This document shows, one piece after another, positions 3,001 through 6,000 of a stretch of DNA of 64,000 bases (the stretch's first letter is position 1; each line of letters begins with the position of its first letter). The stretch is from Escherichia coli (GTDB taxonomy: Bacteria; Pseudomonadota; Gammaproteobacteria; Enterobacterales; Enterobacteriaceae). A program made the position numbers. The stretch lies in assembly GCF_003790525.1 (NCBI RefSeq), contig NZ_CP033635.1; one strand, given 5' to 3'.

Positions 3001-6000
3001 AAAGCATATCAGACGCCTGGGAAGGCGACACCAAAAGGAAGCTCTATGAGCGAAAAGCTACAGAAAGTGCTGGCGCGTGCCGGCCACGGCTCTCGCCGTG
3101 AAATCGAATCTATTATTGAAGCCGGTCGTGTGAGTGTTGATGGCAAAATTGCTAAACTCGGCGATCGCGTTGAAGTTACCCCTGGATTGAAAATCCGTAT
3201 CGATGGTCACCTGATTTCGGTACGTGAGTCCGCTGAACAAATTTGTCGCGTTCTGGCCTATTACAAACCGGAAGGTGAGTTGTGTACCCGTAACGATCCG
3301 GAAGGACGTCCAACGGTGTTTGACCGTCTGCCAAAACTGCGTGGCGCACGCTGGATTGCCGTGGGGCGCCTGGACGTTAATACCTGTGGTCTGCTGCTGT
3401 TCACCACCGATGGTGAACTGGCAAACCGTTTAATGCACCCAAGCCGTGAAGTTGAACGTGAATATGCCGTGCGTGTATTTGGTCAGGTTGACGACGCGAA
3501 ACTGCGTGATTTGAGTCGTGGCGTGCAGTTGGAAGATGGTCCGGCAGCCTTTAAAACCATCAAGTTCAGCGGCGGCGAAGGGATCAACCAGTGGTACAAC
3601 GTTACTCTGACCGAAGGCCGTAACCGTGAAGTTCGTCGTCTTTGGGAAGCGGTTGGTGTGCAGGTGAGCCGTCTGATCCGCGTGCGTTACGGTGATATCC
3701 CACTGCCGAAAGGTCTGCCACGCGGTGGCTGGACGGAGCTGGACCTCGCCCAGACTAACTATCTGCGTGAGCTGGTGGAACTACCGCCAGAAACCAGCTC
3801 TAAAGTTGCTGTAGAAAAAGACCGTCGTCGTATGAAGGCGAATCAAATTCGTCGTGCGGTGAAACGTCACAGCCAGGTCAGCGGCGGTCGTCGTTCTGGT
3901 GGACGTAATAATAACGGTTAATTTAAGTTAAGTATAAAATAAAGGCCCTGCGGGGCCTTTTCTTCATTTGAAGTATGATAAATAGTCGCAGTATTTTAAT
4001 TTAATTTCATACTTGCTTATGAATATTACCAGGAAATAGCCACATTACTATTTAATTATCTGAGATAAACTCAACGTCAAGAGGTGGGTTATGATTAGAT
4101 ATAGTGGAATATTTCTATCGCTGTTAATGCTTTCAGGTTGTGCAACCGAAGCATTGAAGAATGAACAAGCTGAAACTGTTATTACTGCGGGTAACAAGGC
4201 GGTTGCGGCGAATGCAAGTTTCTTTAAACAATACTATGCTTCTCGTGAAAACTTCCTTGTTAATTTCTATGCAACTAATCCGGATTGTGCACTGCGACCT
4301 GATTATACCATAGATATAGGCGGTGATGGTAATGGCGGAAAATTATGCCAGCGCCCTGGGCCAAATACAAAAAAAGTACAATTAGTCCCTTTCGAGAAAG
4401 AAAAATTACTGGCTTCAATGGAAGTCATTAATAGCATGAGCGCTTATGTAGAACTTCTGACTGAGGACATGGCAACGACAGAAAGTCAGCAAGTGGCATT
4501 ACTTAAACAGGCTCTGGATCACGCAAACAACGCACAAACACTACTTGGTATTTCACATAGCAAAGATTTAGCACAATCTGCAGCAGCGGTTAAAGATTTG
4601 GTAAATTATTTCAATGAGTTATATATAATAAAAGTCAATTCTGGAAAAATAGGCAAAACGGTAGATGAAAACTGGGTAAGACTTATAGGGAACATGACAG
4701 TTTTGCGTAATGATATTTATACAAAAAGCAATAAGATTGAAAATTATACCTTTGCGAATGTGCATGATAATATGTTTTATTATAATACGGCATCTAAAAA
4801 CGCTAAGAATACAGAGTTTAACACTCTGAAAAACAGGAAGGAGTTTCTAAGTTCAGTAATCAATGTGAATGAAACCAGGCTACAGGCATCGGCACCTGCC
4901 ATGCCCGCAATTGAGGCTTTAAATGCCTTTATAGATAAGGGTGATTATCTGAATAATTTATATGTTAATAAAACACGCACGGCAGCTGAACAAAAAAGGT
5001 TAAATGAGATATTGCGCGCACAGGTCATTAGTGGGTTAAAGGCGTCTGAGGGGCTGGCAAAATTACTTATTGCCAGCGGAATAATGTTATAGGAGGCTTT
5101 TTATGAACGATGTGCAAAATCGTAGAATACTGGCATTACTTGATATGCTGTATAATACCCTGGGCAATAAAACCACATGTAATGTTTGTCATAAATATTT
5201 TATCCATATCCTCACAGTTATGAACAACCTGACGATTAACTATGGTACTGAAACTTCGCCAGAGTTAGCAGGGATAAATTATGACGATGCTAATGCGCTA
5301 ATTACTGAACTGATATTATTTATTGAAGATGTTGACGCTGAGAATCATGAAACATATCAGAGACATTTCAATGAGATTATACGCATTCTGAATTTTGCTA
5401 TTGCCGCTTGAATATAATTATGATTAAAGCACCTCAAGAGGCAATCTTTTGAGGTGCTTTCCCTTAATAATCAATCCCTATTTGCGCCTTAACACCGGCA
5501 TCAAACGCATGTTTGATGGGGCGCAGCTCACTCACCGTATCCGCTAGTTCAAGAATATCCCGATGACAGCCTCGACCCGTGATAATCACCGTCTGTTGAT
5601 GTGGACGTTCATTTAACGCCTGCACCACTTCTTCCAGTGGCAAATAATCATACGCCACCATATAAGTCAGTTCATCGAGCAAAACCATATCCAGTGAAGG
5701 ATCTGCCAGCATTCGTTTGGCATGTTGCCAGACTTCACGGCAGGCGGCGGTATCAGATTCGCGATTTTGCGTATCCCAGGTAAAGCCCGTTGCCATCACC
5801 TGAAATTCAACGCCGTGTGGTTCCAGCAGATTTCGTTCGCCATTAGGCCAGGTGCCTTTAATAAACTGCACGACGCCCACTTTTTTTCCGTGACCAACTG
5901 CGCGTGTTGCCGTACCAAATGCTGCGGTGGTTTTGCCTTTTCCATTGCCGGTAAAGACGATGATAATACCGCGTTCATCCTGGGCCTGGGCCACACGGGC

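Follow-up and report, generated by a model that had tools for sequence, protein, structure and literature searches.

What kind of protein is encoded at positions 4091..5092 of a 64,000-nucleotide stretch of Escherichia coli contig NZ_CP033635.1 (hereafter the window), and what may it do for the cell that carries it? A first-pass annotation had described the gene as encoding a lipoprotein of unknown function. We found that it is a genuine gene under selection and that its product belongs to a new, unnamed lipoprotein family, whose hallmarks are a lipobox, a helical bundle, a hairpin with the spacing Cys-(17-27 residues)-Cys and an obligatory partner gene. The two genes form a cassette whose alleles show an ancient dimorphism and recombine, and the variable part starts precisely at the hairpin. 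Regarding function, we favour an envelope-level conflict module, acting in the exclusion of or defence against phages or bacteriocins, a reading made by analogy with Llp, Cor and TraT and to which we give a probability of about one in three. The first-pass annotation had recorded neither the obligatory partner gene nor that the locus is an islet, that its alleles are dimorphic and that the family has ties to mobile elements and defence islands. Our literature search returned no paper with either protein accession, and none describing the site between rluB and btuR (also named cobO) in which the cassette resides.

A lipoprotein family and its partner gene

The N-terminus of the 333-residue protein consists of MIRYSGIFLSLLMLSG-C17-ATEA, with one basic residue, a hydrophobic core, the lipobox L-S-G-C and Ala at position +2 (leader, MIRYSGIFLSLLML). 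Hydrophobic 19-residue windows were confined to residues 1-23, and by this measure no hydrophobic segment was found beyond the signal peptide. We compared these features over a family alignment of 40 sequences, with identity down to 15%. The lipobox Cys was invariant (40/40), the -1 residue was G, A or S and was preceded by a hydrophobic leader in all 40 relatives, and the relaxed lipobox pattern [LVI][ASTVI][GAS]-C fitted 35 of them. Position +2 was occupied by A in 31 sequences, G in seven, T in one and S in one, and never by Asp. The lipobox and the Ala at +2 recognized in the first-pass annotation are therefore both borne out, and a lipoprotein of the Sec/Lgt/LspA type, lipidated at Cys17, is a well-supported prediction. 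Since Ala at +2 is not a Lol-avoidance signal, the protein is predicted to be sorted to the outer membrane.

Besides C17, the sole Cys residues of the protein are C66 and C86, in agreement with the two that had been pointed out within the first ~90 residues. Both are invariant in the family, their spacing is 17-27 residues in all 40 relatives, and they probably form a disulfide made by DsbA. Indeed, only C17, C66, C86 and Y119 were invariant in the whole alignment. Column entropy peaked at the hairpin region (1.3-1.6 bits), and helix 1 and the C-terminal helix were the most conserved parts. Two further features described earlier stand only in part. The GGDGNGG loop is present (residues 77-83) but it is not a conserved motif, falling within the hypervariable hairpin and differing even between E. 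coli alleles. Likewise, the body is enriched in Asn (9.9%) and Lys (7.5%), but it is not of low complexity: the 20-residue entropy had a mean of 3.3 bits and a minimum of 2.83, and the fold predicted below is helical, confident and conserved. This enrichment is what AT-rich DNA (32-41% GC) leads one to expect; in high-GC relatives many of the corresponding alignment columns are filled by Ala, Arg and Glu.

The lipoprotein gene does not stand alone. In 100% of the loci examined, an open reading frame (ORF) of 96-107 amino acids was located on the same strand, 1-45 nt 3' of the lipoprotein gene. At the rluB-cobO site this was the case in Citrobacter, E. albertii, E. whittamii and another contig with the same flanks, and at other loci in Buttiauxella, Klebsiella variicola, Pantoea, Rahnella and Methylomonas. 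The partner was also present on contigs of a cluster with one Chlorobiaceae metagenome-assembled genome (MAG) member and on metagenome contigs, including some from soil. In the partner proteins, a common N-terminal helix precedes a Cys that is nearly invariant (Cys26 in the window partner, which is acidic, with an isoelectric point of 4.8). No signal peptide or membrane segment was found in them, and no Pfam, PDB, NCBIfam, PHROGs or PADLOC match. The two genes are co-transcribed and probably translationally coupled. In two non-enteric loci a further same-strand gene lies 5' of the cassette and ends 40-90 nt before the lipoprotein gene; the products, in the Methylomonas (locus 7719-8960) and Chlorobiaceae-MAG-cluster (locus 7864-8910) contigs, are of 413 amino acids without a Pfam domain and of 348 amino acids with a TIG domain, and BLASTP detected no relationship between them. 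As this upstream third gene is not conserved, the unit consists of two genes. An odd label was seen in NZ_CM142805.1, where one of the cassette genes is annotated as 'amino acid kinase family protein'.

A word-indexed search returned just 26 close clusters, from Escherichia, E. albertii and Citrobacter. When 1.84 billion cluster representatives were searched exhaustively with a profile, there were 57 matches, about 30 of them full-length (324-357 amino acids) at 15-25% identity. For the lipoprotein there was no Pfam match even at E <= 10, and none in NCBIfam, PADLOC, PHROGs or the PDB (sequence and profile). All PHROGs matches had E >= 0.027, and phrog_890 ('lipoprotein') spanned residues 8-31 only, that is, at the level of the signal peptide. 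NCBIfam NF040598 (Lpp/OprI alanine-zipper) scored 12.4 bits against a cut-off of 43, over residues 3-37 only. These profile libraries therefore also agree with the earlier view that the protein has no enzymatic signature, and the clear match to a known family that would have contradicted the description as a lipoprotein of unknown function was sought in Pfam, NCBIfam, PADLOC, PHROGs and the PDB and was found in none. The new family is thus defined regardless of its function, and is at present invisible to Pfam, NCBIfam and PADLOC.

Two other assignments were considered and rejected. One was a phage gene, for which INPHARED, IMG/VR and BFVD gave nothing. The other was a plasmid location, suggested by three PLSDB matches (CP054249.1, CP054253.1 and NZ_CP134663.1), all of which are chromosomal. 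Two of these records are fragments of the trp-topA region in strain STO_Bone4, of which one is riddled with frameshifts; the third is a 4.9-Mb replicon; the plasmid matches to the locus are therefore artefacts.

With 13 close sequences, AlphaFold gave an unusable model (predicted local distance difference test, pLDDT, 43). With the 40-sequence alignment, pLDDT rose to 83.3, with a predicted template-modelling score of 0.76. The resulting model is an elongated all-alpha bundle (helices ~18-62, 103-127, 133-151, 158-236, 246-264, 270-292 and 298-328), in line with the mostly helical body anticipated in the first-pass annotation. It contains a single beta-hairpin, hydrophilic in character, in the C66-C86 region (strands 73-77 and 93-97). 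The mature lipoprotein has ~315 residues, and its first helix ~45. Given that helix 1 directly follows the lipidated Cys and that the hairpin turns the chain back, the variable hairpin is predicted to occupy the membrane-distal end of the bundle.

The structure searches did not identify a specific relative. The viral structures of BFVD gave nothing, and Foldseek against AFDB50 returned the family itself and proteins annotated DUF3829. The other matches were generic four-helix bundles (the copper storage protein Csp, talin rod and de novo designs), whose alignments span under half of the protein, with 1-13% identity; the resemblance is one of fold class only and carries no functional inference. 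The suggestion of a pore-forming protein found no support, as the protein has no hydrophobic elements and the structure search gave only generic bundle matches. A pore-former of the ClyA type (ClyA/Hbl/Nhe/YaxA) was rejected on the same two grounds.

The DUF3829 matches raise the possibility that the protein is an accessory periplasmic envelope lipoprotein with a structural or stress role like that of YiiG, and that its patchy occurrence reflects dispensability and has nothing to do with conflict. The best of them was a Yokenella protein (E 8.5e-8, template-modelling score (TM) 0.56), which, at 334 amino acids, is exactly as long as family member P0037 and may itself belong to the family. Other DUF3829 entries matched weakly (E 0.009-0.075, TM 0.33-0.36). 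Like the cassette protein, YiiG and DUF3829 proteins are ~330-350 amino acids long, have a lipoprotein signal, are largely helical and have two conserved Cys, which in YiiG (~350 amino acids) are invariant. An accessory envelope role would also agree with the synteny of the site, between core genes in Escherichia and Citrobacter, and with overall purifying selection. YiiG differs, however, in its +2 residue, an Asp, which by rule means retention in the inner membrane, and in its long linker rich in Pro and Ala, and we saw no partner gene at the K-12 yiiG locus. Moreover, PF12889 matched none of the 40 family members, hhalign of the family profile against K-12 YiiG aligned only the signal peptide, and hhalign against a 25-sequence PF12889 profile gave 4.9% probability over 30 columns. 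Based on the per-member Pfam scans and hhalign, membership of DUF3829/YiiG was rejected; a distant fold-level kinship is possible. We know of no assigned function for YiiG, so that such kinship would be uninformative on function, and our literature search, judged from the search results alone, gave no study centred on YiiG or DUF3829. The deep dimorphism, the low GC and the mobile-element, prophage and defence-island contexts described below would be unusual for a housekeeping envelope protein, and this explanation leaves the conserved cytoplasmic partner unaccounted for. Considering all this, we regard a plain accessory role as unlikely.

Islet, allele classes and genomic contexts

Positions 3800-5600 of the window are 100% identical to the chromosome of E. 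coli SMS-3-5. In K-12 MG1655 the site is empty, the rluB stop being followed by 39 bp and then by the btuR (cobO) stop. Considering this short gap together with the low GC across 3850-5500 (32-41%, against 49-56% in the flanks), we delimited an islet that contains both genes (Table 1). The K-12 rluB-btuR spacer (locus 4731-4767) has its own unrelated hairpin (GCCGGACGTCATATCCGGC). The filled and the empty states therefore carry different terminators, and do not differ by a simple insertion with target duplication. Scans of the islet for non-coding RNA and flanking repeats found none. On the + strand of 3961..4090, a sigma-70 scan gave no match above threshold, and the cassette promoter was not located. 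The hairpin at the other end of the islet is likely a terminator common to the partner gene and the convergent cobO. Only 5,085 places were found in 5,075 genomes; other cargo is therefore rare, and the site is essentially either occupied by the cassette or empty.

Table 1. Coordinates of the islet, its two genes and their main sequence features in the window.
Feature	Position	Strand	Remarks
Low-GC two-gene islet	3924..5463	.	~1.54 kb, in place of the 39-bp rluB-btuR(cobO) spacer of K-12
GC-rich hairpin 3' of the rluB stop	3941..3960	.	terminator-like on both strands (terminator scan)
AT-rich region 5' of the lipoprotein gene	3961..4090	+	GAGGTG Shine-Dalgarno at 4081-4086
Lipoprotein gene, 333 aa, WP_000622025.1	4091..5092	+	ATG start; RefSeq 'hypothetical protein' in E. 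coli SMS-3-5
Predicted signal peptide (codons 1-16) and lipobox Cys17 (codon 4139-4141)	4091..4141	+	lipobox LSGC
Cys66 (4286-4288), Cys86 (4346-4348) and hypervariable beta-hairpin region (codons 66-100)	4286..4390	+	includes GGDGNGG
Partner gene, 102 aa, WP_001000712.1	5103..5411	+	GGAGG Shine-Dalgarno at 5092-5096; RefSeq 'hypothetical protein'
Hairpin between partner gene and convergent cobO	5426..5460	.	inverted repeat with 15-nt arms, 93% complementary, 5-nt loop

Elsewhere in the window, at 940-2835 (yciQ, DUF2207), the predicted YciQ ends in a Gly-rich tail (...YSGGGAGGGAGGGGGGGW).

The cassette was present in 1,234 of the 5,426 complete E. coli genomes, in two allele classes. Class I, which includes SMS-3-5 and CE10, comprises 424 genomes at >=90% nucleotide identity to the window; class II, which includes 536 and JJ1887, comprises about 776-810. 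Between the classes, the lipoprotein shows 66% protein identity, with synonymous divergence (dS) of ~0.95 and a ratio of non-synonymous to synonymous divergence (dN/dS) of 0.09-0.25, and the partner ~71% identity, with saturated dS and dN/dS of 0.09-0.19. The flanking rluB and cobO are 98.5-100% identical at the protein level, with dS of 0.07-0.30 and dN/dS of 0.00-0.04. Both cassette genes are thus under purifying selection, yet their dN/dS is ~5-20 times that of rluB and cobO.

A comparison of the alleles along the locus, in a 60-nt sliding window, showed 95-100% identity between the classes across the upstream region and the first 68 codons (97-100% for the upstream 3961..4090 alone). Divergence starts sharply at 4294 (codon 68), just past C66, and stops at the terminator (~5456). 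E. coli AF40 (NZ_OZ547043.1) carries a naturally recombined cassette: the stretch 4294 to ~4987 belongs to class II, and everything from 4988 through the partner belongs to class I; its C-terminal helix and partner are class I-like at 85-97% identity. Outside E. coli, E. whittamii shares the class I allele at 98%, and an E. albertii allele is about as far from class I as E. coli class II is, with the same 340-residue length as class II. In some strains (NZ_OZ546911.1, NZ_CP029420.1 and NZ_AP022044.1) the cassette is interrupted by IS1 copies, in the region equivalent to 4000-5420, which suggests occasional inactivation of the gene pair.

This allele architecture, in which a conserved promoter region and codons 1-68 are followed by abrupt divergence and by a co-diverging, small and acidic 3' gene, recalls polymorphic toxin-immunity loci such as cdiA-CT/cdiI of contact-dependent inhibition (CDI), Rhs and the colicin operons, where alleles are likewise replaced by recombination in otherwise near-identical backgrounds. 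On this view the lipoprotein might act as a toxin, exported or delivered by contact, or might be a helical protein that damages membranes, with the acidic partner as its immunity protein or antitoxin; colicin genes occur near two of the distant members, and toxin-antitoxin modules near others. On the other hand, the divergent parts of the two alleles are still homologous over their full length (66%) and are not unrelated toxin domains. No toxin, nuclease or pore domain was detected, the protein has no hydrophobic helix or hairpin for membrane insertion, and no delivery machinery is linked to the cassette. Furthermore, a partner with neither export nor membrane signals could not protect the periplasm or the membrane, the sites at which a lipoprotein would act, and the recombinant AF40 joins a class II body to a class I partner. 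We therefore consider a toxin-immunity pair distinctly unlikely.

The distribution of the classes invites another explanation, namely that the protein is a surface-exposed lipoprotein that interacts with the host or is antigenic. It would promote the fitness of extraintestinal E. coli, and immunity or ligands of the host would shape its variable tip. Class II occurs in 536 and JJ1887, which are B2 extraintestinal pathogens, and class I in SMS-3-5 and CE10. A hypervariable, disulfide-stapled hairpin on an elongated helical stalk, as modelled here, would suit such a role, and bears a loose resemblance to the helical variable lipoproteins of pathogens. However, the family and its partner are also found in environmental bacteria (Methylomonas, the Chlorobiaceae-MAG cluster, soil metagenome contigs, Pantoea and Rahnella), in which selection does not come from host immunity. 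In addition, no similarity to adhesins or invasins was found, and surface exposure is only putative. A host-directed role thus appears quite improbable.

The cassette is horizontally mobile. In Buttiauxella agrestis it lies inside a P2-like prophage, between gpS and gpV, the slot that the non-essential orf30 has in P2. In the same prophage, the gpS-like ORF upstream of the cassette (locus 5388-5762) has only 124 amino acids and may be truncated, and an opposite-strand cargo gene, encoding a Peptidase_C92 protein, is found between tail genes I and H (locus 10026-10613). In Klebsiella variicola, the cassette adjoins HamA/HamB (Hachiman) and a phage-type integrase. This integrase-bounded island also encodes a 753-residue protein without a Pfam domain and a 72-residue ORF (locus 4656-6917 and 8434-8652), which may be further uncharacterised cargo of the island.

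Similar surroundings were observed for other distant members. The Methylomonas cassette lies near VapBC, Fic and a Y1 transposase, and that of Rahnella among resolvases, a Mu-type transposase, TraX and a pore-forming colicin. On one metagenome contig the neighbours are a colicin-type DNase with its immunity gene, SRAP, TacA and an insertion sequence. The Logan metagenome contig with member P0037 has a DDE transposase nearby; the other members of that cluster are from Raoultella, Klebsiella and Rahnella. In Pantoea, H-NS and TraX are nearby and the context is otherwise ordinary. For the cluster with the Chlorobiaceae MAG member, the surroundings look mostly like ordinary chromosome; an M78 peptidase-DUF4411 pair and a helicase lie ~8 kb upstream.

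A possible role at the envelope and known systems

How could such a cassette act in conflict at the envelope? We propose that, with its variable tip held by the disulfide, the lipoprotein at the outer membrane may attach to or shield a component that is either incoming or part of the envelope. The target could be a phage receptor-binding or injection protein, a bacteriocin, or the outer-membrane receptor of either, and the attacker would be excluded as a result. Arms-race or frequency-dependent selection could then account for both the hypervariable tip and the two ancient allele classes swapped by recombination. The partner would be a candidate cytoplasmic holder or chaperone of the pre-lipoprotein, or else a regulator or effector arm.

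In its most far-reaching form, the conflict reading would describe a previously unrecognised two-component envelope immunity system. Here the tip would recognise or block phages or bacteriocins together with a dedicated cytoplasmic protein, and the minimal 1.4-kb cassette would spread through prophage cargo slots, defence islands and core-gene junctions over Proteobacteria and possibly beyond, with balancing selection keeping ancient specificities in E. coli. We consider this extended form conceivable, if rather doubtful.

Several observations weigh against a conflict role. No homologue was found in 50,697 sequenced phages (INPHARED, tblastn), IMG/VR or BFVD, so that a single prophage is the basis of the phage link. 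In E. coli, the site does not resemble a classic defence hotspot with many kinds of cargo, being essentially cassette or empty. The context evidence consists of nine or so anecdotal loci and is suggestive, not statistical, and the contexts in Pantoea and in the Chlorobiaceae-MAG cluster are largely ordinary chromosomal, though with accessory-type genes nearby. The outer-membrane location, the disulfide and the geometry of the distal tip are predictions only. Known exclusion lipoproteins are single small genes, and simple receptor masking leaves the cytoplasmic partner unexplained. Finally, neither window protein matched any family of PADLOC-DB 2.0.0 at E <= 1, and five distant lipoproteins and five partners gave one noise match (E 0.042). 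The functional role, resting on sequence, model and context, is proposed with low confidence.

Should the cassette indeed serve envelope exclusion or defence, a lipoprotein-based mechanism that does not act on nucleic acids would join the known defence repertoire. It would also have a bearing on the phage-therapy host range in carrier lineages, and the allele dimorphism would provide a clean natural experiment in balancing selection. The cassette, at present without annotation, is carried by about a quarter of complete E. coli genomes, including major extraintestinal lineages such as 536 and the sequence type 131 (ST131) strain JJ1887. Moreover, it is experimentally tractable, since K-12 offers a natural empty site and nature has provided two allele classes and one recombinant.

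With regard to known defence systems, identity of the cassette with one of them was rejected for lack of a PADLOC-DB 2.0.0 match. That database has models for the Vassallo PD systems, and neither cassette protein matches anything in it. 'A lipoprotein' does figure in the list of PD systems given by Vassallo et al. 2022 (PMC9519451).

Functional parallels can be drawn with another group. Outer-membrane lipoproteins of mobile elements, namely Llp of T5, Cor of phi80, N15 and HK022, and TraT of the F plasmid, act by exclusion at the envelope. The cassette lipoprotein has no sequence or profile similarity to this group (PHROGs), is ~4 times larger and all-helical, is always accompanied by a cytoplasmic-type partner, and is absent from sequenced phage genomes. 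What it has in common with Llp, Cor and TraT is that an outer-membrane-type lipoprotein is carried on moving DNA, in one case in a slot of a P2-like prophage, and that it is patchy in distribution and fast-evolving.

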